Source: a bacterium
GTDB lineage: Bacteria > Patescibacteriota > CPR2 > UBA1875 > JAJYID01
Direction: 5' to 3'
Assembly (NCBI GenBank): GCA_021787535.1
Contig: JAJYLR010000001.1
Coordinates: 147,648-211,647, forward strand
DNA: 64,000 bases
This document shows, piece by piece, positions 5,180 to 56,837 of this stretch. Numbering within the stretch: the first letter of the stretch is position 1; each line of letters begins with the position of its first letter. Position numbers and translations under genes: made by a program. The notes beneath the pieces were generated by a model, which did not search any database, was not told where the DNA came from, and worked only from the letters and a program-made list of their open reading frames with translations.

Positions 5180-5204
5180 GATTCTGGACAAGCCAGAATG
5201 ACAG
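5180..5204 (+). repeat. GAATGACA-hairpin repeat (GATTCTGGACAAGCCAGAATGACA)
   Basis: 7-bp stem ATTCTGG/CCAGAAT; followed by tandem GGAAATTG array 5221-5257 and degenerate copy 5291-5316. Confidence 0.85.
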
Positions 5205-8004: not shown

Positions 8005-8284
8005 ATCATAATTCCTCTACTTTTTTAAAAAAAGTGGAACAAAAATCCCCGACTAGCACTCCGAAATAGATAAAACATAATAAAAATTTATCACTAAAAA
8101 CAATAATCGCTTTGTTTAATCTTGATTTTTCCGGCTTGCGCCGGACGTTCTAAATTTTTAAGTTTTATTAACAACGTAAAGCGAGGGATATAAAAAAGTA
8201 ATCTTTTTTATATCCGAGCTGAGGAGTTAAAACTTTTTGCTACTTCTTCGTGATGTCGGGAAAGAATTGGTATAAAATATTTAT

Positions 8285-31012: not shown

Positions 31013-34000
31013 ATGCAACTGCCAATCGAGGATTATAAGGAAGAAATACAGAGAGCGGTGACAGATAACGATGTGGTTATCATCACCGCCGAGACCGGAG
31101 CCGGGAAAACGACTCAGGTCCCACAGTATTTGTACGAATCAGGGTTCGAAGTGGTAGTCACACAGCCTCGTCGAGTGGCGGCCAGGACCGCAGCGATGCG
31201 GGTGGCTGAGGAGATGGAGACATCTCTCGGCGGACTAGTCGGTTTCAGGACGGCTGAGGAGAAGTATTCCTCGGCAGAGACCAAAGTGCTTTTCTGTACC
31301 GATGGTCTCCAGCTGGTTCGAGAACTGACCGGAAATGGCGCCAAGGACGATGTGATACTGATCATCGATGAAGTGCACGAGTGGAATCGGAATATCGAAA
31401 CACTCATCGCCTGGGCGAAACACCAGCTTGGTATCGGTGTCGCTCTCAAGGTGGTCATTATGAGCGCCACGCTCGAGGCCGAGAAGCTCTCGGCCTACTA
31501 CAACGATGCGCCGGTTATCTCGGTGCCGGGAAGACTGTTCCCGGTTGAAGCAAAAGGGACAGACGATGACCCGGCGATGATTGCTGCAGACTTGGCACGG
31601 GCCGGACGTAATGTCCTGGTCTTTTCTGAAGGCAAGGCTGAGATAGCCGGGCTAGTTGACGTCCTGAAGGCAATGGAGCTGTATGCAGAAATTCTACCGC
31701 TTCATGGCGCCTTAACGCCTGCTGAACAGAAGAAAGCATTCTTGCACTACGGCCGTTCCAAAATCGTCGTTGCCACGAATGTGGCTCAGACGTCGATTAC
31801 CATCGATGACATCGATGCGGTTGTGGACAATGGCATCGAGAAGAAAATAGAAGTCCGCGACGGTATCGAGGGTCTTTTCATTGCTGACACTTCGCAGGCA
31901 GACTGCGAGCAGCGGAAAGGCCGCGCCGGCAGAACGAAGGAAGGGATTTACGTCCTTTGTTCCAGGGTGAAGCTCGAGGATCGGGAGAAGTTTCCGGTTC
32001 CTGAGATTCTGCGCAGCCGGCTTGATCAGCTCGTTTTGCGCCTGGCCGTTATCGGCCTGGACGCGACTGAGCTCGAGTTCTTCCATCAGCCTGACCATGA
32101 CGAAATAGCCCGGGCGAAACAGACACTGATTAAACTCGGCGCTATGACAGAAGACATGCAGGTGACAGGTGTCGGCAGGGCCATGAGCCATTTGCCGGTG
32201 GATGTCCGTTTTGCCCGGATGCTGGTTGAGGCGGAAAGACGGGGAGCCATTGATGATGTTATAGTCATTGTCTCCTGTCTGGAGGCCGGAAGCCTGCGCG
32301 GTCGGGGCAAGAAAGACGAAGAAGGCCGCGAAATGATTCCCGGTTGGCGCAGTTTGACCAGGGAGCATGAATCTGATCTTCTGACCGAGCTCGATCTCTA
32401 TAATGCCGCCCGCGAGATGACAAAGAAGGAAATGTGGGAACACGATATTCCTTCCAAGACCTTCGCCAAAGCAAAAGAGATCAGGGACCGGCTTGCCGGG
32501 ATGTTCACTTCACCCGAGAGACCGGCTTCAAGCAGGCGCGAGGAAATCATGAAGGCGATCACAGCCGGCATGGTGGAGCATGTCTACATGCAGACCTATG
32601 ACAACTATGTCGGGTCTGAAGGAGATGTGCGGCAGCGCGACAGAAAGTCGGTGGTCTTCGGAGAATCGCTGATCGCCGGGGTTCCCTTCAATCTTGAGAT
32701 CAAGACAAGGGAAGGTAATCCCCTCACTCTCCAGCTAATCACTTCTGTCACAAAGGTAGAGATGGCCTGGCTTCAGGAAGTGGCGCCCCAGCTCCTCGAG
32801 GAAAAGCCGAGAGGTTACGAGTATGTTCCCCATCTGGGGGATGTTGCTCTTGTGACCGATAGGCTCTTCAACGGACTGGGGCTCGACTCAAGTTATGAAC
32901 CCGCGAAGGAGTGTCCCGAGGCAACTCGGGCGCTGGCAGAAGCACTGGTCAAGGGCAGGCTGCCTTATCCTGATCGTGTTCATAACGAGACGGTTGTCCG
33001 GGAGGTCAACAAGATAGCCACCAGGCACAATGAGCTGGAAACACTGACAGAGGGGAGACTGATCGAGATCTTCATCGAGAGGCTGGGCAAGACCTACCAG
33101 GTGAAAGACCTGGAAGCCCGTTCGCTTAGCTTCAGGAAGAAGGTAAACCTGAAACTCGATGTCGAAGGCTTCGTTCCGGTGGAGCTGATTCCCGACCTGA
33201 AGACTGAGGTCATCGAGTATGACGGCACCAGCTTCACCGTCAGCTATGAGGAATACTACTCGCGGATAAGCGCGACTGTAGTCATCTCTCAGGCTGACAT
33301 GGACAAGGTCCGGATTCTGCCGCTTCTGCCGAAAGCCGATGAAGTGACGTCAGTTCAAATAGTCGGTGAAAACGGCGAGGTTGTGGCGCGGGGCTATAAC
33401 CTTCGTGATGCGCAAGATAGCCTTGAGAATTATGAAGCGCGCCTCAGGCGGGAATCTGAGGAAAGGAAGCTCCAGGAAGAAGTTAATCAGTTGAGGAAAA
33501 AAGCTGGGGAACTTGCAGACAGAGGCCTCCCAACGGACTACCTCAACCAACTCATCTCAAAGGCAAGGATGCCTCAGGGCTATCGGTATTTTGGGGCAAC
33601 TAATGCGGCTGTCCATGATGCTATCCGAACTGCCGAAAACGAGATCGTCAGGCTGGAGTCAGCCTCGCCGCAGGAAATCCTTCTGGAAGAACTGATGGCC
33701 GGGAAGATTCATCATCCCGACCTTACGTTCAACCGGGGAATCCTGGCGGAGCTGGACAGCCATGCCATTCGCTCGGCAGGCTTCATTGAGAGCCTGTCCG
33801 AAGATCAGTTGCGTGAGCACTACGCTAAGCGGCTGGAAGAAAATGGCATTACCATGCTTGATCAGCTCCTGGAAGCCGATCTCAAGCTTAGGCTCGAGGA
33901 TTACGCTCCGGCTGACATCCTCGCAGAGCTCGAGATGGCTCCTTGTGAGCTCGAGCTGACCGGCCGCAAGGGTACATCTGCCTACCCCATATCCTATCGG

Positions 34001-34306
34001 TATGATGATTTGGACGGCATGCGTACCCCGATCGGTATGGTTAGGATCCCGGTGGCGACTTATGAGAAGAACTGTGAGAGTGTTGGCCGAAGGTCGGGGT
34101 TCTCACAGCTGCCTCATGGCATCACTCTCATCATTGAGGTGACCGAGAAGAACAAGGTCATCGCCAGCGGTGAGGACAGTGAGCAGCTTCAAGCTCAGAT
34201 CAAGCGGTACAAGAAGGGCAAGAAGCGCTCGCCCAACCAGCACGGTGTACTGTCGCATGAGGGTACTGCGCCGCCGCCTTGGCATGTTGGGAACGTAAGG
34301 TATTAA
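31013..34306 (+). CDS. DEAH-box ATP-dependent helicase (HrpA/HrpB-like) with long C-terminal extension
   Basis: motif I AETGAGKTTQ, DEVHEW (motif II), SAT, QRKGRAGR; GC content visibly higher than neighbours. Confidence 0.75.
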   Translation: MQLPIEDYKEEIQRAVTDNDVVIITAETGAGKTTQVPQYLYESGFEVVVTQPRRVAARTAAMRVAEEMETSLGGLVGFRTAEEKYSSAETKVLFCTDGLQLVRELTGNGAKDDVILIIDEVHEWNRNIETLIAWAKHQLGIGVALKVVIMSATLEAEKLSAYYNDAPVISVPGRLFPVEAKGTDDDPAMIAADLARAGRNVLVFSEGKAEIAGLVDVLKAMELYAEILPLHGALTPAEQKKAFLHYGRSKIVVATNVAQTSITIDDIDAVVDNGIEKKIEVRDGIEGLFIADTSQADCEQRKGRAGRTKEGIYVLCSRVKLEDREKFPVPEILRSRLDQLVLRLAVIGLDATELEFFHQPDHDEIARAKQTLIKLGAMTEDMQVTGVGRAMSHLPVDVRFARMLVEAERRGAIDDVIVIVSCLEAGSLRGRGKKDEEGREMIPGWRSLTREHESDLLTELDLYNAAREMTKKEMWEHDIPSKTFAKAKEIRDRLAGMFTSPERPASSRREEIMKAITAGMVEHVYMQTYDNYVGSEGDVRQRDRKSVVFGESLIAGVPFNLEIKTREGNPLTLQLITSVTKVEMAWLQEVAPQLLEEKPRGYEYVPHLGDVALVTDRLFNGLGLDSSYEPAKECPEATRALAEALVKGRLPYPDRVHNETVVREVNKIATRHNELETLTEGRLIEIFIERLGKTYQVKDLEARSLSFRKKVNLKLDVEGFVPVELIPDLKTEVIEYDGTSFTVSYEEYYSRISATVVISQADMDKVRILPLLPKADEVTSVQIVGENGEVVARGYNLRDAQDSLENYEARLRRESEERKLQEEVNQLRKKAGELADRGLPTDYLNQLISKARMPQGYRYFGATNAAVHDAIRTAENEIVRLESASPQEILLEELMAGKIHHPDLTFNRGILAELDSHAIRSAGFIESLSEDQLREHYAKRLEENGITMLDQLLEADLKLRLEDYAPADILAELEMAPCELELTGRKGTSAYPISYRYDDLDGMRTPIGMVRIPVATYEKNCESVGRRSGFSQLPHGITLIIEVTEKNKVIASGEDSEQLQAQIKRYKKGKKRSPNQHGVLSHEGTAPPPWHVGNVRY

Positions 34307-35528: not shown

Positions 35529-35700
35529 AGTCAATTAAAATTAATTCTACTTTTTCTAAAAAAGTAGATAATATTTTTAAAGAGATAGATTGCCCATCTA
35601 TGTGGGAATAGAAGAAAACTGATGACTTAATAGATTCTGGTCAAGCCAGAATGACCCGTCACTATTACACAGTGCGGGGCAAGCATGTTAAAATAAGGAT

Positions 35701-37750: not shown

Positions 37751-39925
37751 ATGGACAAATTTGTTTTGAAAAGCGGTTATAAAATGACTGGAGATCAACC
37801 GGAGGCGGCGGCCAGTTTAATCCGCGGTCTTGAAAATGGTCTGGACAAGCAAATTCTGCTGGGTGTGACGGGGTCCGGCAAGACTTTCACGGCGGCCAAT
37901 GTGATCCAGAAAATCAACAAACCGACTCTGGTCATTTCACATAACAAAACTCTGGCGGCGCAGCTGTATAGCGAATTCAAAGAATTTTTCCCCGATAATG
38001 CCGTGCGCTACTTTGTTTCTTACTACGACTACTACCAGCCGGAAGCTTACATCCCTCGTACCGATACCTATATTGAAAAAGACGCATCTATTAACGAAGA
38101 AATAGACCGGCTCAGAAATGCGGCAACGGCAGCTCTACTCTCAAGAAAGGATACCCTTATTGTCGCCAGCGTTTCCTGTATCTACGGTCTTGGTTCGCCT
38201 GAAGATTATATTAACATGAAAATAGATTTTGAAGCCGGCAAGGCGAAAAATCAGGAGAAAGCTATGCGCCAGCTTCTGGCAGTGCAGTACGAGCGAAATG
38301 ATCAGTCATTTGAAAGGGGAAAGTTCCGTGTGCGCGGCGATGTTCTGGACATTTATCCGATCTATGAGGAGAAAGCGGTACGCGTGACTTTCGATAATGA
38401 TATTGTGGAGTCAATTCGAGATCTCAATCCCGTGACAGGCGAGCTGGGCAAGAGAGTGGATAATGTTTCGATATTCCCGGCCAAGCACTTCGTCACGCCC
38501 AGGGAGAAACTGCTCTCAGCTATTCCGGAGATTGAGCGCGACCTGGCCAGCAGATTAGCCGAACTGAAGAAGCAGGGCAAACTGCTTGAAGCGCAGCGGC
38601 TGGAGCAGAGAACCAAGTTCGACCTGGAAATGATCCGAGAGACCGGCTACTGCTCGGGGATCGAGAACTATTCTCGTTATCTGGCAGGCCGTGCACCGGG
38701 CGAACCGCCGGCAACGCTTCTCGACTTCTTTCCTGATGATTTTCTAATGCTGATCGACGAGTCCCACATGACCATTCCGCAGATCAGAGGCATGTACAAC
38801 GGCGACCGATCGCGCAAAGAAACGCTTATCGAGCACGGATTTCGCCTGCCCTCAGCCCTCGATAATCGTCCGCTGCACTTCAGTGAATTTAAAAAATTCA
38901 TGAGCCCGGCCATCTTTATCTCAGCCACGCCGGGGGACTACGAATTCAAAACGGCCAGCGGACACAAGATTAACTCGGCCGATGAATATTACGAGGCGGC
39001 AAGAAGCAATGATCAATTTCCAATTTCCAATTTCCAATCAATTTCCAATGATCAAAATTCAAACAAAAACAGTCATTCTGGGGACGACAGGACTCCAGAA
39101 TCGGTTTTGGACAAGGATTCTGGACAAGCCAGAATGACAGGAAAAGGGTTCTCCTGGATTTCTGAACAGGTTATCCGCCCGACGGGGCTTCTCGATCCCG
39201 AGGTGGAAGTGCGCCCGAACAAGAACCAGATTGACGACCTCATTCACGCAATCCAGCTTAGGGTCAAGAAGGAGCAAAGGGTTTTGGTGACGACTTTAAC
39301 GAAAAGAATGGCCGAGGACCTAAGCGAATACTTGAAAGAGCTAAACATCAAGGTGACCTATATTCATTCGGAAATTAATACCTTGGAACGTCCGGAAATC
39401 CTGCGTGATCTTAGAAAAGGCGTCTATGACGTAGTTGTCGGCGTCAATCTTTTGCGGGAAGGTCTGGATCTGCCGGAAGTATCGCTGGTAGCAATCTTGG
39501 ACGCCGACAAGGAAGGATTTCTGCGCGGAGAGAACGCCCTCATTCAGACCATCGGGCGAGCGGCGCGGCACTCAGAAGGCAAGGTAATAATGTATGGCGA
39601 TACCATGACTTTATCTATGGAGCGAGCGATCAGCGAGACTCAACGAAGGCGCAGGATTCAAGAGGAATATAATAAAAAGCATGGCATTACGCCAAAGACT
39701 ATTAAAAAAGCTATTCGCGAAGACATCGTCCGGTCGGAAAAAAGAAAGAAAGAACCCAAATTCGAGATTACTGATATGCCGGCCGATGAACTTGAGCGCA
39801 TAGTTCAAGACATGCGTAAGAAAATGGAAATCGCCTCAAAGAACTTAGAATTTGAGCAGGCAGCCAAACTCCGCGACCAGATACAAGACATTAGAGCGAA
39901 GATAGAGTCAAAGAAAATAAAATAG
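37751..39925 (+). CDS. uvrB: excinuclease ABC subunit B
   Basis: [10 protein letters not shown] Walker A, DESH, helicase motifs, C-terminal UVR domain ([10 protein letters not shown]); ~50-aa in-frame repeat-derived insertion at 39000-39140. Confidence 0.9.
39001..39139 (+). repeat. composite element inside uvrB: (CAATTTC)n tandem array, hairpin GTCATTCTGG..CCAGAAT, hairpin GATTCTGGACAAGCCAGAATGACA; all in frame
   Basis: encodes ...[13 protein letters not shown]...[10 protein letters not shown]. Confidence 0.8.
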
Positions 39926-39967: not shown

Positions 39968-40768
39968 TTAGGACAGGTGCTCGCATTTCTTGTAAGCGCC
40001 TTTTGTGTAGCCGATAGCTTCCGAAAGAACGAGATGATCGTCCGGTCCCATACGAAGGGCTCCTTCGGCGTCAACACTCGCGTCAGGACAAATCTCGAGA
40101 ATTGGATCCAGGAGATCAAGATTACCCTTGTGTAGACCGCCTGCCACTGTGATGCCGATGTCCAGAGCTGCTGCCTTTATAGCTTTCATGTTCTTGACCA
40201 TCAGGCCAGGGAAGAGCTCTATGCCGAGTCCGCCGGAGATGTCGAGGATCAGATAATCAACCTCGCCATTCAGATAGGCTGCTCGGAAGCGTTTCACCAG
40301 TTCCAGAGCGGTCTCAGTGGAGTCCTTGAGTGTCCAGCGTCCTGCCTGAAGTACGATCTGCATCTCAGGGAACTTCTCCTTGAACTTCGCAATTTCGCCG
40401 GCTTCCGGCCAGGCCATATTCAACTGAAATCCATGGAGATTAGGTCCGGCTATGTCACTAGCGATCATCATCAGCGCTTCCCCGAGACCTTCGGAACTCT
40501 TCAGTCCATCACCGTAGTGAATCAGATTGAATGCCCGAGGATCATCGGTGAATATACCGCTTATATCGTTGCCCATAGGATAGCGGCCGGTCCATTTGTT
40601 GCCGTTGCCGTAGATCGTCTTGGGGCTTGCCAGCACCCCCACCATGAACTTCCTGGATGCATTTGAAGGGATAGCACCCATCACAGTTTCTACCTCTTCC
40701 CGGGTCATAAATCCGGTAATGCCGATGTATGGTTCGTGTCTCATTACTCCTACCAAGATGTCAACCAC
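39968..40768 (-). CDS. TIM-barrel protein, weakly TrpF (phosphoribosylanthranilate isomerase)-like
   Basis: IGITGFMT..., YLILDISGGLG..., ITVAGGLHKGNL resemble PRAI motifs; minus strand, higher GC. Confidence 0.3.
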   Translation of the reverse strand: MVDILVGVMRHEPYIGITGFMTREEVETVMGAIPSNASRKFMVGVLASPKTIYGNGNKWTGRYPMGNDISGIFTDDPRAFNLIHYGDGLKSSEGLGEALMMIASDIAGPNLHGFQLNMAWPEAGEIAKFKEKFPEMQIVLQAGRWTLKDSTETALELVKRFRAAYLNGEVDYLILDISGGLGIELFPGLMVKNMKAIKAAALDIGITVAGGLHKGNLDLLDPILEICPDASVDAEGALRMGPDDHLVLSEAIGYTKGAYKKCEHLS

Positions 40769-40783
40769 TTGATATTATGCCTA

Positions 40784-40807
40784 TCTGTAGGCATAATTTT
40801 TTGTTCG
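40784..40807. promoter_or_regulatory. 10-4-10 perfect palindrome ATTATGCCTA-TCTG-TAGGCATAAT in divergent promoter region
   Basis: read from sequence. Confidence 0.35.
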
Positions 40808-40888
40808 AATAAATTGATTGAACTGACAGGACTCGAACTTTTAAGCACAAAATTGTTCCCCTCTCGGGTTTATTATTTCTCTGGAAAG

Positions 40889-40916
40889 TTGACATGTAGA
40901 TAAAGTGTAGTATATT
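40889..40916 (+). promoter_or_regulatory. promoter TTGACA-16-TATATT
   Basis: read from sequence. Confidence 0.45.
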
Positions 40917-40953
40917 GATTATAAGAAATATGTATTAAACGGAGACAATAATT

Positions 40954-41268
40954 ATGTCAGAAGAACAATCAATGGATGATTTACGTCATGAAATGTATGA
41001 CGAAGATAGAGTTCAAGATCCAGAAAAGGCTCGTGTTATGGCGGAAGCAGAAAGGCCACATCAAGAAAAGGCTAATGAGCGTTTCGATTACGCAAAGAGA
41101 TTGGAAAGTATCGCGGAAGAAATACGATCAGAATATCCGGAAGAAGCAGGTAAGCTTCTTGATGTTGTTGAACAACTCAATCAAGATGCCAATTGGGGAG
41201 ATCTCAATATGGCAGACAGTAAGGGTCAAGAAGCAGGCGAAAAATACGATTCAGAAAAAAGTGATTAG
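40954..41268 (+). CDS. hypothetical acidic protein
   Basis: 104 aa, highly acidic; preceded by TTGACA-16-TATATT promoter and GGAGAC RBS. Confidence 0.35.
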   Translation: MSEEQSMDDLRHEMYDEDRVQDPEKARVMAEAERPHQEKANERFDYAKRLESIAEEIRSEYPEEAGKLLDVVEQLNQDANWGDLNMADSKGQEAGEKYDSEKSD

Positions 41269-41535
41269 TATTTCAAGAGCCACAAGAACTTGTCTATGCA
41301 GAGAGCTTCTCTAAGTGCTGTTTTAGCCCATTTAGAAGGGAAATCTCACTTTTGGTATAGTTCGAATAACGTAGCACCTGGTCTCCTTTTGTTTTCAAGT
41401 TGCGAACTATTTACATGATATTTGCCTTGTCAGTATATTGATATTGCGTTATATGGGTAAGCATTTAGGCTAAACCGTGCTTGCTTCGTCAGCTTTCTTA
41501 TTGAAAATGTTAATGTTATATGTCAAGATATTGAT

Positions 41536-41982
41536 ATGATAAAGTGTCCATATTGCAGGGAAGATTTTAATGACGTCAAAAACAGCCGTTCGACATACAA
41601 TGGCTCGCAAGTTTGGCGGCGGAGACTCTGCCGGAAATGCGGCAAAACATTTACCACTTATGAGAAAGTGCGGCCGGACTTTCTTTTTGTCATTAAAAAA
41701 TCGGGAAGAAAAGAAAGGTATTCTCGCGAAAACATCTACTCAGGTATTTATCGCGCTGCTCTGGACTGGAAGGATAAGGAAAAGATTGTCAACAAGATAG
41801 TAGATATAGTCGAGTCGAAAATCCTGGATCTTGGGGAAAAGGAGGTAAAGACATCTGAGATTTCAGACATAGTCCTGAAAGTCTTGAAGCACTCAAACAT
41901 TAAAACATTTGTTCGCTTTCTAACATACAACAAACAGCCGCAAGGTGAGGAGGAGTTCACCAAACTCTTTAGAAAATACTAG
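41536..41982 (+). CDS. nrdR: transcriptional repressor NrdR
   Basis: N-terminal zinc ribbon MIKCPYC...RRRLCRKCGKTFTTYE and ATP-cone; 148 aa. Confidence 0.8.
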   Translation: MIKCPYCREDFNDVKNSRSTYNGSQVWRRRLCRKCGKTFTTYEKVRPDFLFVIKKSGRKERYSRENIYSGIYRAALDWKDKEKIVNKIVDIVESKILDLGEKEVKTSEISDIVLKVLKHSNIKTFVRFLTYNKQPQGEEEFTKLFRKY

Positions 41983-42075
41983 TTTTGTTGTATAATTGCT
42001 TTAGAAGTCAAAGAAAATCGGAGGCAAACTCTGATTTTTTAAACTCGTATCTTGATATAGGAAGGCGGACAAATC

Positions 42076-42276
42076 ATGAAAAGTTTTGTGATCGGCTTTA
42101 CTCTGATAGTTATAACTGTGTTACTGACTATCATATTTAATGTGACAAATGTTGTTCCGGGCTCATTCCTGCATTTCATTATAGCTTCTGTTGCATTCGC
42201 ATCACTGATTATCGGTATATGGTTTATATATGGTTGGTTTGACTCAAAACTATTTCCAAAAAAAGGGGGTCAGTAA
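42076..42276 (+). CDS. small 2-TM membrane protein
   Basis: 66 aa, two hydrophobic helices, basic tail. Confidence 0.4.
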   Translation: MKSFVIGFTLIVITVLLTIIFNVTNVVPGSFLHFIIASVAFASLIIGIWFIYGWFDSKLFPKKGGQ

Positions 42277-42277
42277 G

Positions 42278-42499
42278 GTGAAAAAGATTTTGTTGGTTAT
42301 ATGGCTCCTAGTGCTGGCTGAGGTAGTTACATTTATTATCCCGCCTCATTTTGAGCAGAAAGCTGATCTGTCTTTTGAGGCCTGGCTAGTTCTCGGTCTC
42401 ATGCCCGGCAGCTTTGGGTTGGGTCTCCTGTTTGCATGGTTGCCCCCAAGGGAAAAAAAGAGCGGTTCTGGCCGTGTTTGGTCTCGTCCGATGCGATAA
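42278..42499 (+). CDS. small 2-TM membrane protein
   Basis: GTG start 2 nt after upstream stop with GGGGG RBS; two hydrophobic helices. Confidence 0.4.
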   Translation: MKKILLVIWLLVLAEVVTFIIPPHFEQKADLSFEAWLVLGLMPGSFGLGLLFAWLPPREKKSGSGRVWSRPMR

Positions 42500-42517
42500 T
42501 TAAAACGGAGGTGAGTG

Positions 42518-42721
42518 ATGGCGCTAGACCCTGAGAAACCTTCTAGTATTTGCCATAATCCGGACTCTGTATTTTACGAGACCGAGCCATGTGAGTGCGC
42601 GTCCTGCAAATTCACCAATGATAGCCATCGTTGCGTGGATGATCCGTGTAATGGATGCGAAGAACCGACAGTTGATTGCGGTATTTCAGAACAAATCAAA
42701 AAAGAAGAAAGAGGCGAATGA
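42518..42721 (+). CDS. small Cys-rich soluble protein (8 Cys)
   Basis: GGAGG RBS; CHNP...CECASC...CVDDPCNGCEEPTVDC. Confidence 0.4.
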   Translation: MALDPEKPSSICHNPDSVFYETEPCECASCKFTNDSHRCVDDPCNGCEEPTVDCGISEQIKKEERGE

Positions 42722-42722
42722 A

Positions 42723-43034
42723 ATGGCAATATTCAAACCCAATGCGTCCAGGGAAACAAAAGTTCTGATAACGGGATTTCTGATGACTTTTCTGGGGGTT
42801 GTCGCAGTCATTGCGATCGTGGCTCTTTTCCCCGATCAGTATGAAATGCCATTCATCCCCGTATCCGTGCTAAGCTTGCCTGGGTTAGCTTTGATGCTGA
42901 TCTTCTGGTTCAAAGCGCCTAAGTATGCTTGCAAATATGACAGGGGACTCTGTGATGGGCACTGCAGAGACAAAAAACAGCGCATCATTTGTCCTGAATA
43001 TGGCAAATGTTCAGAACATGATTTAAGCGGATGA
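42723..43034 (+). CDS. small 2-TM membrane protein with Cys-rich C-terminal tail
   Basis: ATG 2 nt after upstream TGA; two helices then CKYDRGLCDGHCRD...CPEYGKC. Confidence 0.4.
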   Translation: MAIFKPNASRETKVLITGFLMTFLGVVAVIAIVALFPDQYEMPFIPVSVLSLPGLALMLIFWFKAPKYACKYDRGLCDGHCRDKKQRIICPEYGKCSEHDLSG

Positions 43035-43050
43035 CCGGAAGGAGGACTAG

Positions 43051-43242
43051 ATGTCCAAGAGGTTATTTCTACGGACTATGGAACTTGTCTTGGCGATCAT
43101 TTTGATCGTACTGGCCTGGCAATATGTCGATTTCATCAGGATTAAACCCTTCTGGGGAAGTGCTAGTCTGATTCTTTGGACTGTCGGTGTGCCAATGGCT
43201 ATCATGAAAAATCGGGCTATGCATCATATACGAGGTGAGTGA
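43051..43242 (+). CDS. small 2-TM membrane protein
   Basis: GGAAGGAGG RBS; 63 aa. Confidence 0.4.
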   Translation: MSKRLFLRTMELVLAIILIVLAWQYVDFIRIKPFWGSASLILWTVGVPMAIMKNRAMHHIRGE

Positions 43243-43247
43243 AGTTG

Positions 43248-43499
43248 ATGACCAGAGGAGAATTGTTTAAAGCCAAGTACGGCCTTAGCTTGAGCGGGGT
43301 ATTTTGGTTTATGACTGTCTTTATTCTGGTGATTGTGGCGATGATCGGATTAGCTTTAGTATTCGCTGATCTCAACCATCATTACTTCGTTCAAGCGGTG
43401 GGTTTTCTCATTGTTTCCGGTGTATTGGCAGTCTGCCTTTTCATTCTCGGATTCATAGCCCGCCGGTACGATCGCCAGCCAATTAAGAGAGTGAGGTGA
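43248..43499 (+). CDS. small 2-TM membrane protein
   Basis: overlaps upstream stop; alternative GTG 43239 or TTG 43245. Confidence 0.4.
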   Translation: MTRGELFKAKYGLSLSGVFWFMTVFILVIVAMIGLALVFADLNHHYFVQAVGFLIVSGVLAVCLFILGFIARRYDRQPIKRVR

Positions 43500-43505
43500 G
43501 GGAAG

Positions 43506-43652
43506 GTGAAAGATAGTCAAGAAGGAACGCGGGGTGAAAATTCAGATGTTTCGGTTGAGTACCAAACCGTAGACCCTGCCTGCGAGATGTGTATGCTGGA
43601 ATGCGAGAGGTGTGGACTTGGCATTCCACTTGAAAAGCAGGGGAATCGGTGA
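43506..43652 (+). CDS. putative 48-aa Cys-rich peptide (two CxxC pairs)
   Basis: GTG after GAGGTGAGG RBS; CEMCMLECERCG; below ORF-track size cutoff; followed by two mutually exclusive hairpins. Confidence 0.25.
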   Translation: MKDSQEGTRGENSDVSVEYQTVDPACEMCMLECERCGLGIPLEKQGNR

Positions 43653-43668
43653 AACGCTCGCTTTTATG

Positions 43669-43718
43669 GCGGGGACAAGAGAAGTGGTCTTGTCCCCGCC
43701 ACAGAGGGGACTTTTTTG
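43669..43718 (+). terminator. two mutually exclusive hairpins: 12-bp stem GGCGGGGACAAG/CTTGTCCCCGCC versus terminator GTCCCC-loop-GGGGAC + TTTTTT
   Basis: read from sequence. Confidence 0.5.
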
Positions 43719-43846
43719 AAAAAAGAGTCCTTTTTTTCTTTTTATGAAAGAAGGTCGGATCTTTCTAGTACCCGCCAGGTCCGAACCTCAAAACAAATCC
43801 AAAATAGATTCCCGACTTCACGGAATAACAGAAAGGTTGCAAAAGT

Positions 43847-43875
43847 ATTGTCAAACCTCGCCAAAATCTGTATAA
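43847..43875 (+). promoter_or_regulatory. promoter TTGTCA-17-TATAAT upstream of uvrA
   Basis: read from sequence. Confidence 0.5.
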
Positions 43876-43961
43876 TGGAGAGGTTTCTGGCGCCTCCTGC
43901 AAACGGGGGAATGGATTTTTGGCTTACACAGTGCATAAATTTTTAATATTTTGAGGGCAAT

Positions 43962-46786
<2,825 letters not shown>

Positions 46787-46787
<1 letters not shown>

Positions 46788-47545
46788 TGGCTTATTTTCG
46801 TGAAAGAAATAAATTGCATATTGAATACTCTGGTAATGAAGAAGTGTCTGAAAGCTTGAGAAATAGACTGATAGCTATACATAAAAAATATACTAATTAT
46901 TCTACCAATTATGGTCGATATATTAAGAAAACGAATTTAGAGCATGAGCTTCTGATTCATCTAGAAAACTCAGATTATATTAACATCTTATGCAATGAAC
47001 CTTATGATTCTGTTTTTGAAGCAGTAGAAATTTTCATTGAGCTAGCAGGAAAGGATGCTCATAACAATATTGGTGCTATTATTGTTGAGATCGAAAGAGC
47101 CTTTCTTTTGTCCGGAAGTGTTTATGAGATTGACAAACAATGTCAAATTTCCCTAAAAGTAGACCGAAAAACAGCAGAAAGATTAAATGATATTGAAGCC
47201 ATTTTTGATCAGGATGCTAAGGAAAAATTTTTTGATTCAGTTGGTAAATTTCTATCTCGGAAGTTAGCACCCAAGGACACAATTAAAGATGTTTTTGTCG
47301 CCTTTGAAGATTATTTGAAAGAAAAGTTAGCTGTAAAGGACTATTCAAAAGCGATCGAAAAGCTGAAAAAAGAAGGAATAATTTCAAATACTCAAAAGGC
47401 TTTATTAGAAAAAATTTATGCTTATAGGTCTGATACTTATGGTGTCACTCATGCTGGTAACTCCGAAGAACCAAAAGAACTAGAAGCAGTTTGGTTTATA
47501 GATACTGTTTCGGCGCAAATTATTTATCTTTCCAAGAAAATTTAG
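46787..47545 (+). CDS. hypothetical protein (AT-rich island gene 1)
   Basis: TAATG overlap with uvrA stop; very Lys/Ile/Asn-rich; C-terminal R-x7-H (RSDTYGVTH) loosely HEPN-like. Confidence 0.35.
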
Positions 47546-47655
47546 TTGTTTTGGCACAGAAAAAAGGAACAAAAATTTGGTAAAGTGGACGCAGAAAAAT
47601 TTTTTTGAAACAAAGCCAAAATACGGTATAATTATAAGGTAATAAAGGATTCCCT

Positions 47656-48174
47656 ATGGGTTTTCAAGAACAAATCATAGCTACTTTTATTGGTGCACTT
47701 TCAGGTTTTATTTTTTCAATAGCGGTTTTTTATATAACAGAAAAAATTAGACAAGCAAATTATAACTCTAATCTGGCAAAAAATATTCAAAAAGAAGCCG
47801 ATTTCAACGTTAGTTTACTTGATACCATCAAAGAAGAAATTGACGAACTACTAAGAAAAATCTCAGCAAATGATGCCGGCCATATTTATACAATATTTAA
47901 ATATGATCAATTACAGAAAAACTTTCTCCAACAAGCTCTTTGGAATGGTTACTTATACGAAAAGTTGGAAACAGAAGATATATATAAAGTTCAAGAAATG
48001 TGGAGCTTTTTTATGCCGTCTTCCAATCAGTTCGATATAGGTAACGTTGAGCTACTAAAGTCCGGGCAAATGACTCAAGCTGATGCCCTGAATCGTTTTG
48101 AATATGTTAAGAAGAAAATCATAGAATTTAAAAAATTTAATAAAGATCTGAAAAAGAAATTCACGAACAAATAG
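47656..48174 (+). CDS. hypothetical N-terminally membrane-anchored protein (AT-rich island gene 2)
   Basis: TM helix IIATFIGALSGFIFSIAVFYI, no known motif. Confidence 0.35.
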   Translation: MGFQEQIIATFIGALSGFIFSIAVFYITEKIRQANYNSNLAKNIQKEADFNVSLLDTIKEEIDELLRKISANDAGHIYTIFKYDQLQKNFLQQALWNGYLYEKLETEDIYKVQEMWSFFMPSSNQFDIGNVELLKSGQMTQADALNRFEYVKKKIIEFKKFNKDLKKKFTNK

Positions 48175-48491
48175 ACGGACATATCAAGATCGCTTGACTG
48201 TTTTGTTTCTCAACCCCGATTTAATTTTTGTGCTAAAAACCCTAAACCCCAAGTGACACAAACTTTGCCTACCCTCCTTCACCAAGGTTACGGGCGGACA
48301 GGTCGTCCAACTTTGTGTCACCTCAACTCCCGCATTTGTGCTAAAGAGATTCAGAGAAGAGTATAAAACACAAAATACAAAACACGGCATGGTGGCATTT
48401 CTGTACGATCACTCCTAAAGAAATAACCTTCAGTTCAATTCTGTGCTAAAATAGGAGGTGTAGTTTAGTGTTGCATAAATAATTTGAACAT

Positions 48492-50045
48492 ATGGATGTG
48501 AAAAGGGAAGTTAAAAAATTGCCGGCGAGTCCGGGGGTATACATTTACCGCAACTCGCGGGGCAGAATAATCTATATTGGCAAAGCGATTTCAATTCGTC
48601 ATCGGGTGAGCCAGTATTTTCAAGATGCGCGGGGATTGGATGATAAGACGCGGAGGCTGGTGCCCGAGATAGCCAAGATTGAATATATAAAGACAGGTTC
48701 TGAGGTAGAGGCATTAATCTTGGAAGCGGAGCTCATCAAGCGCTACAAGCCGAAGTTTAACATCCAGTGGAAGGACGATAAAAACTATGTCTATATCAAA
48801 ATCACGGCTGAGGATTACCCGCAGGTATCTTTGGTTAGACAGATCGTAGACGATAAAGCGCGCTACATCGGTCCCTTTGTCAGTGCCGGAGCGGTAAGAG
48901 GGCTTCTGAGATATGTCCGGAGGATATTTATGTTTAGGCATTGTGAGAACATGCCTCAGAAAGTTTGCCTGCAATACTCTATCGGCAACTGTACGGGTCC
49001 GTGCCAAAAATACATAACAAAGGCCGAATACAACAAAAACATTCGCAGGATGATCAAGCTTTTTCAGGGTAAGACCAAGGAGATTGAGAGGGAATTTAGT
49101 CGGGAGATGAAGCAGGCAGCTAAGAATGAGGATTTTGAGAAGGCGGCCATGTATAGGAATAGGTTGATGTGGTTGAAAAAGATTAAAACGATCGAGCTAG
49201 ATAAAGAAGATTTTGATTCCGGACAAGCCAGAATGACGAGGGATAAGGGATTAATCGGTTTGCGGGACGCACTGGACCTTGGCTCGGTTCCGAAGCGGAT
49301 AGAGTGTTATGACATCTCTAATATATTCGGAAAAGCGGCGGTGGGCTCAATGGTAGTTTTTATAGACGGGCTGCCGGATAAAGCGCACTACAGGAGGTTT
49401 GAGATTAAGACGGTAGATAAGATTTCGGATACTGATATGATCAAGGAAGTTCTCTCGAGAAGGTTCAGAAAATTCACCGATTCTGGACAAGCCAGAATGA
49501 CAAAGCAAAGGGATTCTTCGCGGAGTTTATCCGTCTTTGGCGGGCTTAGAATGACAGGGAAGGATAGCGTGGACAAATCTTTTACTCAAGTACCTGACCT
49601 CATTATCATCGACGGCGGGAAGGGCCAGCTGTCGGTGGCGGAGAAGGCGCTCAATGAGTATAGCCTGCATCTAAACTTGGTGTCGCTTGCCAAAAGGCGC
49701 GAGGAGATATTCAAGAAGGATTATGGTCAAGCCAGAATGACGAGGGTAGGCAAGCAAAACGGAAATTTTCAGAAAATTACACTGCCGGAAGGCTCTGAGA
49801 GCTTGTATTTGGTTCAGCGCATTCGTGATGAGGCACACAGATTTGCCATAACTTATCACAGAAGCAAGCGCGGCAAGGAGATGGAAGCGTCAAATCTGGA
49901 TGCCATATCTGGTATTGGCCCAAAAACCAAAAAAAAGCTTCTTAGAAATTTTGGTTCACTTGAAAACATAAGAAAAGCATCAAAAGAAGATTTAGCCGAG
50001 ATAGTCGGCGGGAAACTGGCTCAAAAGATCAAAGAAAAACTTTAG
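48492..50045 (+). CDS. uvrC: excinuclease ABC subunit C (compact, with 3-4 in-frame palindromic-repeat insertions)
   Basis: GIY-YIG (VYIYRNSRGRIIYIGKA), UVR domain, endonuclease domain, C-terminal (HhH)2 ISGIGPKTKKKLL; repeated SGQARMT peptides. Confidence 0.9.
   Translation: MDVKREVKKLPASPGVYIYRNSRGRIIYIGKAISIRHRVSQYFQDARGLDDKTRRLVPEIAKIEYIKTGSEVEALILEAELIKRYKPKFNIQWKDDKNYVYIKITAEDYPQVSLVRQIVDDKARYIGPFVSAGAVRGLLRYVRRIFMFRHCENMPQKVCLQYSIGNCTGPCQKYITKAEYNKNIRRMIKLFQGKTKEIEREFSREMKQAAKNEDFEKAAMYRNRLMWLKKIKTIELDKEDFDSGQARMTRDKGLIGLRDALDLGSVPKRIECYDISNIFGKAAVGSMVVFIDGLPDKAHYRRFEIKTVDKISDTDMIKEVLSRRFRKFTDSGQARMTKQRDSSRSLSVFGGLRMTGKDSVDKSFTQVPDLIIIDGGKGQLSVAEKALNEYSLHLNLVSLAKRREEIFKKDYGQARMTRVGKQNGNFQKITLPEGSESLYLVQRIRDEAHRFAITYHRSKRGKEMEASNLDAISGIGPKTKKKLLRNFGSLENIRKASKEDLAEIVGGKLAQKIKEKL
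49215..49750 (+). repeat. three to four hairpin-repeat copies inserted in frame in uvrC (49215-49237, 49479-49502, 49511-49556, 49728-49750)
   Basis: each read in same frame giving (D)SGQARMT. Confidence 0.8.
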
Positions 50046-51216: not shown

Positions 51217-51239
51217 GTCATTCTGGCTTATCCAGAATC
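51217..51239 (-). repeat. hairpin repeat, reverse orientation (GTCATTCTGGCTTATCCAGAATC)
   Basis: family consensus. Confidence 0.8.
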
Positions 51240-54754: not shown

Positions 54755-54843
54755 GCTGCGGTGGCGGAATTGGTAGACGCGCTGGCTTGAGGGGCCAGTG
54801 GCCCGAAACGGCCGTGGAGGTTCAAGTCCTCTCCGCAGCACCA
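54755..54843 (+). tRNA. tRNA-Leu (anticodon GAG)
   Basis: hand-folded cloverleaf: acceptor GCTGCGG/CCGCAGC, anticodon loop TTGAGGG, long variable arm, GGTTCAAGTCC T-arm, encoded CCA. Confidence 0.85.
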
Positions 54844-54989
54844 AAAACTAAATACCCTCACAGGGTTTTTAGTTTTGGGTAATGCTGAGGTGGTGAGAAT
54901 CTTCTGTAGACGCCCAGAAAAATCATAAACAATGTTACAAGACTTTCAATGAGATTGATGTGAGTTTATTAGAGAATTAAACTCAAAGG

Positions 54990-55084
54990 CGGCGAGCCGC
55001 TTCAAGTCCTCGCAGCAAGCACCAAACTTCGCTCTGAATTTTTCAGAACTACGCTTGGCAGGCCAACGAAGTTATTTGCAAGGT
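54990..55084 (+). repeat. ~95-bp direct repeat copy A: tRNA-Leu 3'-half-like fragment (TTCAAGTCCTCGCAGCAAGCACCA) plus ~70-nt hairpin-rich tail
   Basis: near-identical to copy B at 56955-57047; compensatory changes in internal hairpin. Confidence 0.7.
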
Positions 55085-55147
55085 GAGAAACACAGAATAG
55101 AATAGAATTTTAATGAAGCCGAGAGGGCTTTTTTTGACGCTTTCTAA

Positions 55148-56035
55148 TCAATACCTTTGCAACACCTGAGCTGGTGTTTTAAGGCCAATGCCCAGATGCC
55201 TCCTTTCATTGTTGTAGTAATCCAGATAGCTTTTAATCCTTGCTTCAATTCCTTTCTCCAGCCATAGCTTTTCACATTCTTCCTGAATGGTTCTATTGAA
55301 TCTTTCAATGTGAGCATTATCATTTGGTTTTCTGACTCTGGAATGTCTGAGTTTTGTTCCTTTGTAGCCAAGCATGTCAGAAAACCATTTGCCAAATTCA
55401 GGTCCGTTATCTGTTTGGACTGTTTTAAATCTAAATCCTGCTAGTTTCTGTGCTTTTAAGACAAACTTCAAGCTGTTGGTTTGAGAAAACCTCTCAGTAT
55501 ATTCCGCATAAGCAAATCTTGAGTAAAGATCGATTAATGTATAGACATAATATCTAGTTCCATCATCTCTAACAAAGTGAATGGTGTCTAACTGAACCAA
55601 GTCACCCGGTTGAAAGACAAAAGGCCTGGGAATATGCGGCCTGAAGCGTTTCCACTTTGATTTTTCTCTGATCAATCCCTGTCTTTTAAGGGTTCTTTTC
55701 ACTGAGGATAAACTAACTTTAATATCTCTTTCCTTTAAATCCTCGTAGATCACTTCAGCGCATCTGTTGTGTTTTAATCTTTCTTCTCTGATTGCCTCAA
55801 TAATATCCTGGGGCAGTTCTTTCGGATGATGGTGAGGTCTTGAGCTTCTGGTTTGAAGATGAGCGTTTAATGAAAGATATTCCTCCCTATATCTTTTTGC
55901 CCATCTTGAAACAGAAGAGTAGGAATATCCAAAGTGACGGGCTACCTGCCTGGTTGAATATCCTTGCTTTAACATTCTGACAGCTTGCAATCTAACCTTT
56001 GGCATATTGGGATTTTTTGTGTATGACATACTCAT
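55148..56035 (-). CDS. DDE transposase (rve/integrase core, IS481/IS3 superfamily) with N-terminal HTH
   Basis: HTH QVARHFGYSYSSVSRWAKRY; DDE residues in VQLDTIHF, VQTDNGPEF, HIERFNRTIQEE. Confidence 0.8.
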   Translation of the reverse strand: MSMSYTKNPNMPKVRLQAVRMLKQGYSTRQVARHFGYSYSSVSRWAKRYREEYLSLNAHLQTRSSRPHHHPKELPQDIIEAIREERLKHNRCAEVIYEDLKERDIKVSLSSVKRTLKRQGLIREKSKWKRFRPHIPRPFVFQPGDLVQLDTIHFVRDDGTRYYVYTLIDLYSRFAYAEYTERFSQTNSLKFVLKAQKLAGFRFKTVQTDNGPEFGKWFSDMLGYKGTKLRHSRVRKPNDNAHIERFNRTIQEECEKLWLEKGIEARIKSYLDYYNNERRHLGIGLKTPAQVLQRY

Positions 56036-56067
56036 AATTTTAATGCAAAGTGTTGCAAAGGTATTGA
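55148..56067 (-). mobile_element. IS481-like insertion sequence (~920 bp) with 18-bp terminal inverted repeats TCAATACCTTTGCAACAC
   Basis: IRs at 55148-55165 and 56050-56067 (reverse complement) bracketing single transposase ORF. Confidence 0.75.
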
Positions 56068-56156
56068 ACCATTACGTTTTGATTGACAGATATAAACTTT
56101 TATGGTACTTTATTAATCATAACTTTTGTTGCCTAGGAATATTTATCTGAAAAGGA

Positions 56157-56384
56157 GTGATGGTAGTGATGGTAATGAAGAAAGGAACGAAGGTGGTAAC
56201 ATTTTTCAAAGAGGAGGATCTGAGCGAGATGAGAGACGCCGGTCTCACTGATGGTATGAAAGGAGTGATCATCAGTGACCCGATACCTGCCCATAAAGGG
56301 AGCTCATTTCGTGTTCGTTGCGAGAATGGGATCGAAATAAAGCTTCATGAATCTCACTTGCAGCTAACATCAGCGGACGGGTAG
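56157..56384 (+). CDS. hypothetical 75-aa protein
   Basis: GGAGTG RBS; ends exactly at tRNA-Val start. Confidence 0.25.
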   Translation: MMVVMVMKKGTKVVTFFKEEDLSEMRDAGLTDGMKGVIISDPIPAHKGSSFRVRCENGIEIKLHESHLQLTSADG

Positions 56385-56461
56385 CTTAACTGGCTAAAGT
56401 GCCGGCTCGACATGCCGGAAATTGAAGGTTCAAATCCTTTCCCGTCCGCCAACATTTGAGG
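56385..56461 (+). tRNA. tRNA-Val (anticodon GAC; unusual C33)
   Basis: hand-folded: acceptor GGACGGG/CCCGTCC, anticodon stem CCGGC/GCCGG loop TCGACAT, T-arm GAAGGTTCAAATCCTTT, encoded CCA. Confidence 0.7.
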
Positions 56462-56485
56462 GGATTTATCCTCTCTTGCAGAGAC

Positions 56486-56560
56486 TGCTCCAGTAGCTTA
56501 ACTGGTAAAACGTCGGGTCGTTATTTGAAGGTTACCAGTTCAAATCTTACCTTGGGCAGG
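56486..56560 (+). pseudogene. degenerate tRNA-like duplicate (pseudo-tRNA)
   Basis: shares GTAGCTTAACTGG.TAAA and GAAGGTT...CAAATC with adjacent tRNA-Val but T-arm and anticodon stem do not pair; 7-nt ACCAGTT insertion. Confidence 0.3.
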
Positions 56561-56645
56561 CAATTTATCTGGGCGTCCGCGAATCTTGGGCGCCCATTTT
56601 TCTTTTACAAATTCAGATCTTATAGTATAATATTTCAGTATTTTT

Positions 56646-56722
56646 GGGCGCTTAGCTCAGCTGGCTAGAGCGACTGGTTTACACCCAGTAGGTCGAGGGT
56701 TCGAGTCCCCCAGCGCCCACCA
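56646..56722 (+). tRNA. tRNA-Val (anticodon TAC)
   Basis: acceptor GGGCGCT/AGCGCCC, D-arm GCTCAGCTGGCTAGAGC, anticodon loop TTTACAC, T-loop TTCGAGT, CCA. Confidence 0.85.
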
Positions 56723-56750
56723 TAGAAAATTTCGCTGAAAATATTGAAAA

Positions 56751-56837
56751 GCCGCGGTGGCGGAACTGGTAGACGCGCTGGCTTCAGGTGCCAGTGAAAG
56801 CAATTTCGTGGAGGTTCGAGTCCTCTCCGCGGCACCA
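56751..56837 (+). tRNA. tRNA-Leu (anticodon CAG)
   Basis: acceptor GCCGCGG/CCGCGGC, anticodon loop TTCAGGT, long variable arm, CCA; paralogous to tRNA-Leu(GAG) at 54755. Confidence 0.85.

Follow-up and report, generated by a model that had tools for sequence, protein, structure and literature searches.

What are two AT-rich genes doing between the repair genes uvrA and uvrC in a bacterium of the Patescibacteriota lineage CPR2? The locus was analysed within a 64,000-nucleotide stretch of contig JAJYLR010000001.1 (positions 147648-211647 of the forward strand; hereafter the window). In it a gene of 252 amino acids (gene A) begins on the last base of the uvrA stop codon, and a gene of 172 amino acids (gene B) lies between it and uvrC. 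A first-pass annotation, made from the sequence without database searches, had taken the two for a horizontally acquired cassette of defence, abortive-infection or toxin-like type. The reading favoured here, at a rough probability of 0.6, is that the uvrA-uvrC interval is a lineage-specific, variable slot for defence and toxin genes, holding in this genome an abortive-infection-type candidate (gene A) together with an independent gene B. The features on which the argument draws are the following.

37751-39925, plus strand: uvrB
43962-46787, plus strand: uvrA (941 amino acids), the conserved left flank (NCBIfam UvrA, 1558 bits)
46785-46789, plus strand: TAATG junction of uvrA and gene A, read from the sequence
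46787-47545, plus strand: gene A (252 amino acids), PDC-S32 / AbiJ-NTD4 family
47417-47458, plus strand: gene A motif YAYRSDTYGVTHAG, residues 211-224 (R214 codon 47426-47428, H222 codon 47450-47452)
47546-47655, plus strand: spacer of 110 bp between genes A and B, with a promoter-like site inside
47656-48174, plus strand: gene B (172 amino acids), a membrane protein with one N-terminal transmembrane helix
48175-48491, plus strand: non-coding stretch between gene B and uvrC
48492-50045, plus strand: uvrC (517 amino acids), the conserved right flank (NCBIfam UvrC, 442 bits)

Both open reading frames (ORFs) were recovered exactly as first described, and they have the two lowest guanine-plus-cytosine (GC) fractions of the 39 ORFs of at least 150 amino acids in the window. 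Gene A has a GC of 0.318 (0.233 at third codon positions, GC3) and gene B of 0.304 (GC3 0.272), against 0.430 ± 0.042 (GC3 0.436 ± 0.075) for the other 37, giving z-scores of -2.7 and -3.0. The heavy use of lysine, isoleucine and asparagine was likewise borne out, at 0.265 of residues in gene A and 0.289 in gene B versus 0.214 ± 0.029 elsewhere. The contrast to uvrA exaggerates the shift, since uvrA has an unusually high GC of its own (0.522, z = +2.2); measured against the genome background, GC falls by about 11-12 points and not by 20.

The uvrA stop codon (TAA, 46785-46787) and the gene A start codon (ATG, 46787-46789) overlap by one base (GTGAAATAATGGCT; overlap letters AAATAATGG), as had been noted at first pass. 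Judged from the letters, this is an arrangement of the translational-coupling type. The start at 46787 was accepted as the true one because the N-terminus, MAYFRERNK, aligns column by column with MSYFRERNK and similar sequences in 30 homologues. A promoter-like TTGTCA-17-TATAAT lies ahead of uvrA at 43848-43876.

A scan of GTDB species representatives with UvrC returned nothing above 43% identity; sister genomes were hence taken via UvrA. Three (L084, L085/86 and L087) are the readable members of the 90%-identity cluster of the window's UvrA, and a fourth contig (L088, with a UvrA fragment) was obtained by scanning metagenomes for a DNA pattern of the 3' end of uvrA. The order S16-KH-TrmD-ferredoxin-x-uvrB-uvrA ... 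uvrC is shared by all sisters, with identities to the window of 90-97% for full UvrA (L084-L087) and 65-81% for UvrC (all four). Genes A and B were absent from all four sister intervals by tblastn, and the lineage-wide conservation that would mark housekeeping genes was thus not seen. Nucleotide homology between window and sisters (blastn) stops at the uvrA stop codon (46788) and restarts at 48443-48471, 20-50 bp before uvrC. What lies between differs in each case:

Window: gene A (PDC-S32 / AbiJ-NTD4) and gene B
L084: DpnI-like methyl-directed nuclease (Pfam, 38.8 bits), then about 7 kb of assorted genes
L085/86: genes of 226 and 87 amino acids without a family
L087: type II methyltransferase (E=4e-97), MutH/Sau3AI-like nuclease, a gene without a family and a DUF5677 protein
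L088: Zeta toxin (E=2.9e-36), membrane proteins, and a pair of Gp49/HigB-like and helix-turn-helix (HTH) genes

Five different cargoes were therefore read between uvrA and uvrC, from the window and the four sister intervals, and the cargo next to uvrA is low in GC in every case (0.32-0.38). Different cargo between the same conserved flanks in close relatives identifies the interval as a hotspot, specific to this lineage, in which defence and toxin genes vary. In Atribacterota and Anaerospora, the lineages whose UvrC is most similar, uvrC comes straight after uvrA across a gap of 150-240 bp, as the first-pass annotation had anticipated for other genomes, and on this comparison direct adjacency is likely the ancestral state. 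The 226-amino-acid protein of L085 and the DUF5677 protein of L087 were tried as distant relatives of gene A and rejected (hhalign probability 0.1-0.2%).

Traces at the uvrA 3' end bear on how the cargo is exchanged. In L085/86 a remnant of the last ~30 uvrA codons follows the real stop codon after 36 bp (L085 10917-11044; L086 4196-4323); it ends in TAG directly abutting the ATG of the 226-amino-acid cargo gene, a junction as tight as that in the window. L088 carries two tandem uvrA-tail remnants on the reverse strand (~8172-8431), and ahead of them a copy of the post-uvrA spacer of the L087 type. All of these are probably recombination scars, though those of L088 may be an assembly artefact at a strain-variable site. 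The duplicated tails point to recombination through the conserved 3' end of uvrA as the way in which cargo is exchanged. A search of the window's own island found no uvrA-tail remnant, and no integrase or mobile-element gene was seen in the slot.

At the other end of the island, the sequence from 48175 to ~48442 has no counterpart in the sisters. Between gene B and uvrC there is an imperfect hairpin (48253-48273 / 48301-48321), and a TGTGCTAAA box recurs; its last copy before uvrC (48442-48452, TGTGCTAAAAT) resembles an extended -10 element for uvrC. No Rfam family was found in this spacer, and its folding energy was no better than that of shuffled sequences (z=0.41).

PaaX_M proteins (Cas2-like fold, ~160-190 amino acids) were also observed in the uvrA-uvrC interval of 4/4 sisters, usually near uvrC: L084 13158-13640; L085 12277-12813 and 17323-17904; L087 13851-14384; L088 3522-4055, minus strand. 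The window interval, the shortest at 1.7 kb, has no PaaX_M protein.

The PADLOC search that had been proposed for both proteins gave a different answer for each: gene A matches the candidate defence system PDC-S32, and gene B matches no PADLOC family. Gene A matched PDLC04996 with E=3.1e-10 (residues 30-251 against profile positions 45-275/280) and a second PDC-S32 model, PDLC04997, with E=6.5e-9. PDC models derive from genes embedded in defence systems, a principle termed 'guilt-by-embedding' (bioRxiv 10.1101/2024.01.29.577857). A search of 5.8 billion proteins yielded 46 gene A homologues of similar length and 41-49% identity, from Scalindua, Taylorbacteria, other Patescibacteria and metagenome contigs; one carries the NCBI name 'AbiJ-NTD4 domain-containing protein'. 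Pfam AbiJ_NTD4 was matched by 24 of the 31 aligned close homologues at E<=1 (best E=1.7e-10). A gene A family profile, run with full HMMER against 1.84 billion cluster representatives, recovered 51 representatives at E<=1e-30 and 279 at E<=1e-3, and the distant matches were bona fide AbiJ_NTD4 proteins in 36/36 tested (best E=1.3e-35). Gene A was therefore placed in a divergent AbiJ-NTD4 subfamily, a membership reached transitively, through its homologues and the family profile. The protein is full length and retains all 22 invariant and nearly all near-invariant family residues. Plasmids searched by tblastn gave no match to gene A, and PDB profile searches with the full-length protein and the C-terminal domain returned designed helical repeats or nothing.

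Eight independent contexts of gene A homologues were read besides the window:

L004/5, L008/9, L077 and L081-83 (four contexts): homologue flanked by hsdS and hsdR in a type I restriction operon, its start and stop abutting or overlapping the neighbours
L006/7: homologue with AIPR and a Type ISP enzyme on one side and HipBA on the other
L080: homologue behind an HNH gene
L002/3 (Scalindua): homologue beside HD, Schlafen-like and SMC-like genes
L078: homologue without a recognisable defence neighbour

Type I restriction operons thus account for half of the contexts (4/8), and in another two the homologue has other defence or toxin genes as neighbours. The hallmark of PDC-S32 is a single gene embedded in a BREX, DISARM or type I restriction-modification system; its type I form is seen in the homologues and not in the window copy. 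The abutting and overlapping junctions of the relatives make codon-to-codon coupling to the upstream gene a trait of the gene A family, and uvrA is simply the gene that occupies the upstream position in the window. Anantharaman et al. (2013; PMC3710099) described AbiJ-NTD4 proteins that carry a fused HEPN domain of the AbiJ type and frequently have a link to restriction operons.

The fold was predicted with AlphaFold2, for the full-length protein (predicted local distance difference test, pLDDT, 83) and for the C-terminal domain alone (pLDDT 89, predicted TM score 0.83). The predicted N-terminal part is alpha+beta (~residues 1-125, with a beta-hairpin at E113-115/E121-123) and the predicted C-terminal domain has six helices (~residues 140-252). 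The model thus has the AbiJ-NTD4 layout of an alpha+beta N-terminal domain of ~160 amino acids followed by a C-terminal effector, in agreement with PMC3710099. The top Foldseek match of the full-length model in the PDB is a HEPN protein (2hsb, AF_0298; probability 0.91), and ~16 of the 20 top matches of the C-terminal model are HEPN or HEPN-related (HepT, AF_0298, SO_3166, LsoA, YutE, DrrA). The HEPN structures matched by the two models include 2hsb, HepT (7ae6/7bxo/6m6w) and SO_3166 (5yep). Gene A itself gave no match to a Pfam family of the HEPN clan (e.g. Abi_C, PF14355). Among its relatives isolated weak matches were found to Abi_C (7e-4 and 0.12), DUF4145 (0.016), HEPN_MAE_28990 (0.013) and HEPN_DZIP3 (0.008), and all such scattered matches besides AbiJ_NTD4 are to HEPN-clan families. 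The HEPN domain of lactococcal AbiJ is similarly hard to detect (PMC13064643).

Within the C-terminal domain the motif YAYRSDTYGVTHAG falls between the last two helices of the model, as in HEPN, and is the putative active-site segment. R214, S215, H222, A223 and G224 are invariant in the 31 aligned family sequences, and E174 and H222 are invariant both in the core family and in a wider AbiJ_NTD4 set. The spacing R-x7-H occurs in 55/55 core-family sequences. In the distant AbiJ_NTD4 set the arginine stands at H-1 (RH) in 68/79, with R-x7-H in 5 and both in 1: the mainstream motif is YGYTSDxxGIRHAG, and that of the gene A subfamily is YAYRSDxxxxxHAG, with the arginine eight residues before the histidine. 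A conserved arginine that shifts position and is never lost suggests a functional site. On these alignments R-x7-H is a peculiarity of the subfamily and not the canonical HEPN motif, and gene A lacks two usual marks of a HEPN protein, the motif spacing and the Pfam clan match. The faint HEPN resemblance proposed at first pass accordingly gained from the structure matches, which are mostly to HEPN toxins though weak, and lost on the motif, which is not Rx4-6H. The C-terminal domain is taken as HEPN-like and probably catalytic.

Gene B has the N-terminal membrane anchor that was first proposed for it, a single strongly hydrophobic segment at residues 7-25 (nucleotides 47674-47730; Kyte-Doolittle mean 2.3), followed by a helical soluble part. 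In Pfam, NCBIfam, PHROG and PADLOC it had no match below E=0.005 and nothing coherent. When the same 5.8 billion proteins were searched, with the single sequence and with a two-sequence profile, one homologue came up (P0048), 66% identical across the full length with no frameshift or stop. It is encoded upstream of dnaG-rpoD (L001 1119-1649), overlaps the dnaG start by 14 nucleotides and follows a CYTH-like gene and a multi-pass membrane-protein gene; its GC is ~0.37 versus 0.46-0.50 for the adjoining dnaG-rpoD genes. No AbiJ-like gene was found near it in L001, and in none of the eight gene A contexts did tblastn and blastp show a neighbour resembling gene B. The spacer ahead of gene B contains a promoter-like TTGAAA-16-TATAAT at 47605-47632, a consensus match only, at 11/12 positions. 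The lack of co-occurrence and the promoter-like site of its own therefore make genes A and B neighbours and not a conserved pair. On the searches made, gene B is a lineage-restricted small membrane protein that is independent of gene A and not its partner. Of the cassette proposed at first pass, the accessory and variable character and the defence-type family of gene A stood, and the pairing of the two genes as a unit did not.

A working scheme can be put together from these results. Gene A would have no promoter of its own and would be transcribed from the uvrA promoter, then translated by termination-reinitiation at the TAATG, at a low level proportional to UvrA. Since gene A is fused to the uvrA stop codon, a low level of product would be made whenever uvrA is translated; hitch-hiking on uvrA in this way would be the arrangement that the relatives have between hsdS and hsdR. 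Sensing or regulation is presumed to fall to the N-terminal alpha+beta domain, which may sense a phage cue or restrain the effector. The effector itself would be the HEPN-like C-terminal domain (E174, R214, H222), which is most likely an RNase; probably as a dimer, it would cleave RNA and arrest the infected cell. Gene B would be expressed separately from its own promoter-like site. The cargo of the slot is probably swapped by recombination through the conserved flanks, occasionally leaving duplicated uvrA 3' remnants. The first-pass annotation had also expected co-expression with a DNA-damage-inducible gene. Damage-inducibility of uvrA in this organism is an extrapolation from E. coli, and the placement of gene A is that of a lineage hotspot, not a demonstrated link to DNA-damage induction.

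Several observations weigh against this reading. Gene A scores only 14.5 bits (E=0.052) on Pfam AbiJ_NTD4 (PF18863), whose gathering cutoff is 34. The HEPN structure matches are weak (Foldseek E 0.3-2, TM score 0.4-0.5), the R214-H222 spacing lies outside the canonical Rx4-6H, and H222 sits in a low-confidence loop (pLDDT <50). The L078 context offers no defence neighbour, the sister comparison comprises four independent intervals, and the evidence for a putative co-translation with uvrA is the geometry of the junction. PDC candidates are mostly unvalidated (bioRxiv 10.1101/2024.01.29.577857), and the mechanism of lactococcal AbiJ is not known in the literature (PMC13064643). No member of PDC-S32 or AbiJ-NTD4 has been phage-tested, and the defence role of gene A is that of a candidate.

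Some of these points would also fit a gene A that has nothing to do with defence: it might, say, regulate or bind nucleotides and have a HEPN-like domain that is not catalytic, and the island would be neutral cargo. The defence role is a candidate one drawn from sequence and context, the motif is non-canonical, the HEPN similarity is weak, the L078 homologue has no defence neighbours, and many HEPN domains are non-catalytic (PMC3710099). This was nevertheless judged unlikely: 6/8 independent contexts are in or beside restriction, Abi or toxin-antitoxin genes, the distribution across phyla (Scalindua, Taylorbacteria, other Patescibacteria) is patchy, and R214, H222 and E174 are strictly conserved, the arginine being relocated between two positions in the wider family and never lost. 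Gene A could instead guard UvrA here and the type I restriction complex elsewhere, its product being released as a toxin when a phage inhibits the complex. PrrC is a guard-type toxin of this sort, working with EcoprrI. The codon-to-codon coupling to operons of DNA-scanning or translocating ATPases (hsdS/hsdR in four independent contexts, and uvrA) agrees with such a role, and the same logic has been proposed for HEPN genes in restriction operons (PMC3710099). In the sisters, however, unrelated cargo follows uvrA (a DpnI-like nuclease, a restriction-modification pair, the 226-amino-acid gene, a zeta toxin); the position therefore reflects the hotspot and not a specific partnership. Other homologues, moreover, lie beside AIPR, HipBA, HNH or non-defence genes. 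A guard function is accordingly regarded as quite improbable.

A single system made up of genes A and B, such as a HEPN-like toxin plus a partner, antitoxin or effector anchored in the membrane, is suggested by their adjacency on the same strand, their extreme AT-richness (GC 0.318 and 0.304) and their joint absence from the sisters. It is contradicted by the eight other gene A contexts without a gene-B-like neighbour, by the sole homologue of gene B lying upstream of dnaG with no AbiJ-like gene nearby, and by the 110-bp spacer with its 11/12 promoter-like site; gene A homologues are single embedded genes, and PADLOC lists the family as a single-gene candidate. We consider the two-gene system very improbable. 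Least credible of all is an island of decaying remnants of past insertions, with one or both ORFs non-functional. The strongly atypical composition, the adjoining 270-bp non-coding stretch without a counterpart and the orphan status of gene B would fit it. Gene A, however, is full length and keeps all 22 invariant residues, gene B is 66% identical to its homologue over the full length without frameshift or stop, and both genes have plausible start contexts. An extension of the preferred hotspot reading was also considered, in which the uvrA 3' end is a dedicated docking site and defence genes are exchanged as units of a uvrA tail plus stop-codon-fused cargo. The tandem uvrA-tail remnants may then be scars, and cargo expression may be slaved to uvrA translation. 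In a stronger version, AbiJ-NTD4/HEPN-like guards may be wired to DNA-scanning ATPases (HsdR complexes, UvrA) and fire when a phage disables them. The docking proposal is a speculative one, rated a little below the non-defence accessory and above the guard.

Elsewhere in the window, a dispersed 23-nucleotide hairpin repeat, GATTCTGGACAAGCCAGAATGAC, with a 7-bp stem (ATTCTGG/CCAGAAT), occurs in 7 copies against 0.21 expected: on the plus strand at 5180-5202, 35633-35655, 39116-39138, 49215-49237, 49479-49501 and 49719-49741, and on the minus strand at 51217-51239. Copies were also found in the sisters (L085 8022-8042; L088 2360-2380 and 2621-2641), and there were 0 copies in 9.6 kb of L001, an uninformative result as to whether L001, home of the gene B homologue, is of the same lineage. 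Four of the copies lie in frame in uvrB and uvrC and encode DSGQARMT at linkers, where the UvrB and UvrC proteins of sisters and outgroups show gaps or other short inserts; the UvrC of L088 has a second repeated peptide, LDSRLRGNDK, at such linker sites. In-frame palindromic elements such as the Rickettsia palindromic elements (RPEs) are similar.

The gap between uvrB and uvrA (39968-43950) is a second variable slot. It measures ~4 kb in the window and contains a minus-strand ORF of 266 amino acids (GC 0.52, no family match) and several small membrane-protein ORFs; in the sisters it holds 405 bp (L084), two small genes (L085), or a NYN nuclease (PADLOC NYN, 8.8e-14) with four small genes (L087). 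A DEAD/Helicase_C protein of 1097 amino acids and high GC (0.548) is encoded at 31013-34306, between SMC and ribosomal protein S16, and has weak PADLOC matches (Cas3, SngC; E ~5e-5). Its place is taken in L084 by an EamA transporter and in L085 by an EamA gene with a 412-amino-acid N6/N4 methyltransferase, and this may be another variable or defence slot. The leucyl-tRNA synthetase (970 amino acids, 23045-25957) has a NUDIX domain at residues 381-502 (E=2.5e-13) right after the editing domain, an unusual fusion. At 54755-56834 a cluster of four tRNA genes is split by a minus-strand transposase/integrase gene (rve + HTH, 55148-56035).

To our knowledge, few phage defences have been recognised in candidate-phylum bacteria. 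With uvrA and uvrC as its borders, the slot shows where one of these lineages houses variable defence and toxin genes, among them compact single-gene candidates attached straight to the stop codon of a housekeeping gene, and the uvrA 3' end can serve as an anchor for mining more cargo in related metagenomes. Gene A offers experiments a divergent and intact PDC-S32 / AbiJ-NTD4 representative, and the shift of the arginine between H-8 and H-1 is a ready mutational hypothesis on the active site of the family.

The themes of the locus are already known (defence hotspots, Abi-like genes embedded in operons, and HEPN-type effectors), and it is not a new system. Gene A resembles PDC-S32 in matching both models nearly end to end and in having homologues in type I restriction operons; unlike the norm for that family it lies directly behind uvrA and not inside a defence system, and it is divergent, with at most 49% identity to anything among the 5.8 billion proteins. 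With AbiJ-NTD4 plus AbiJ-type HEPN proteins (PMC3710099) it shares the two-domain order, the association with restriction operons and the weak detectability of the HEPN domain. It differs from AbiJ-NTD4 in falling below the Pfam threshold and in carrying R-x7-H in place of GIRHAG; lactococcal AbiJ was not compared directly. Like the HEPN toxins HepT/MntA, SO_3166 and AF_0298 (7ae6, 5yep, 2hsb), it is predicted to form a bundle of helices, the last of which is preceded by a conserved Arg/His segment, but it has no adjacent MNT-type antitoxin, is fused to an extra N-terminal domain and differs in motif spacing. The anticodon nucleases PrrC and RloC are embedded in type I restriction operons, and PrrC is silenced by that enzyme. 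Gene A is similarly toxin-like and nested with a host operon for a DNA-tracking enzyme, yet it has no sequence or fold relationship to PrrC, which combines an ABC-ATPase with a nuclease domain of its own. Defence hotspots between core genes have been described in the pangenomes of E. coli, Vibrio and Pseudomonas. The uvrA-uvrC slot differs from them in that its left boundary is the uvrA stop codon itself, to which the cargo is sometimes fused, in the uvrA 3' remnants left as scars, and in its setting in a small candidate-phylum genome of about 0.64 Mb; it resembles them in its conserved flanks, uvrA and uvrC, with a different low-GC defence or toxin cargo in each sister.

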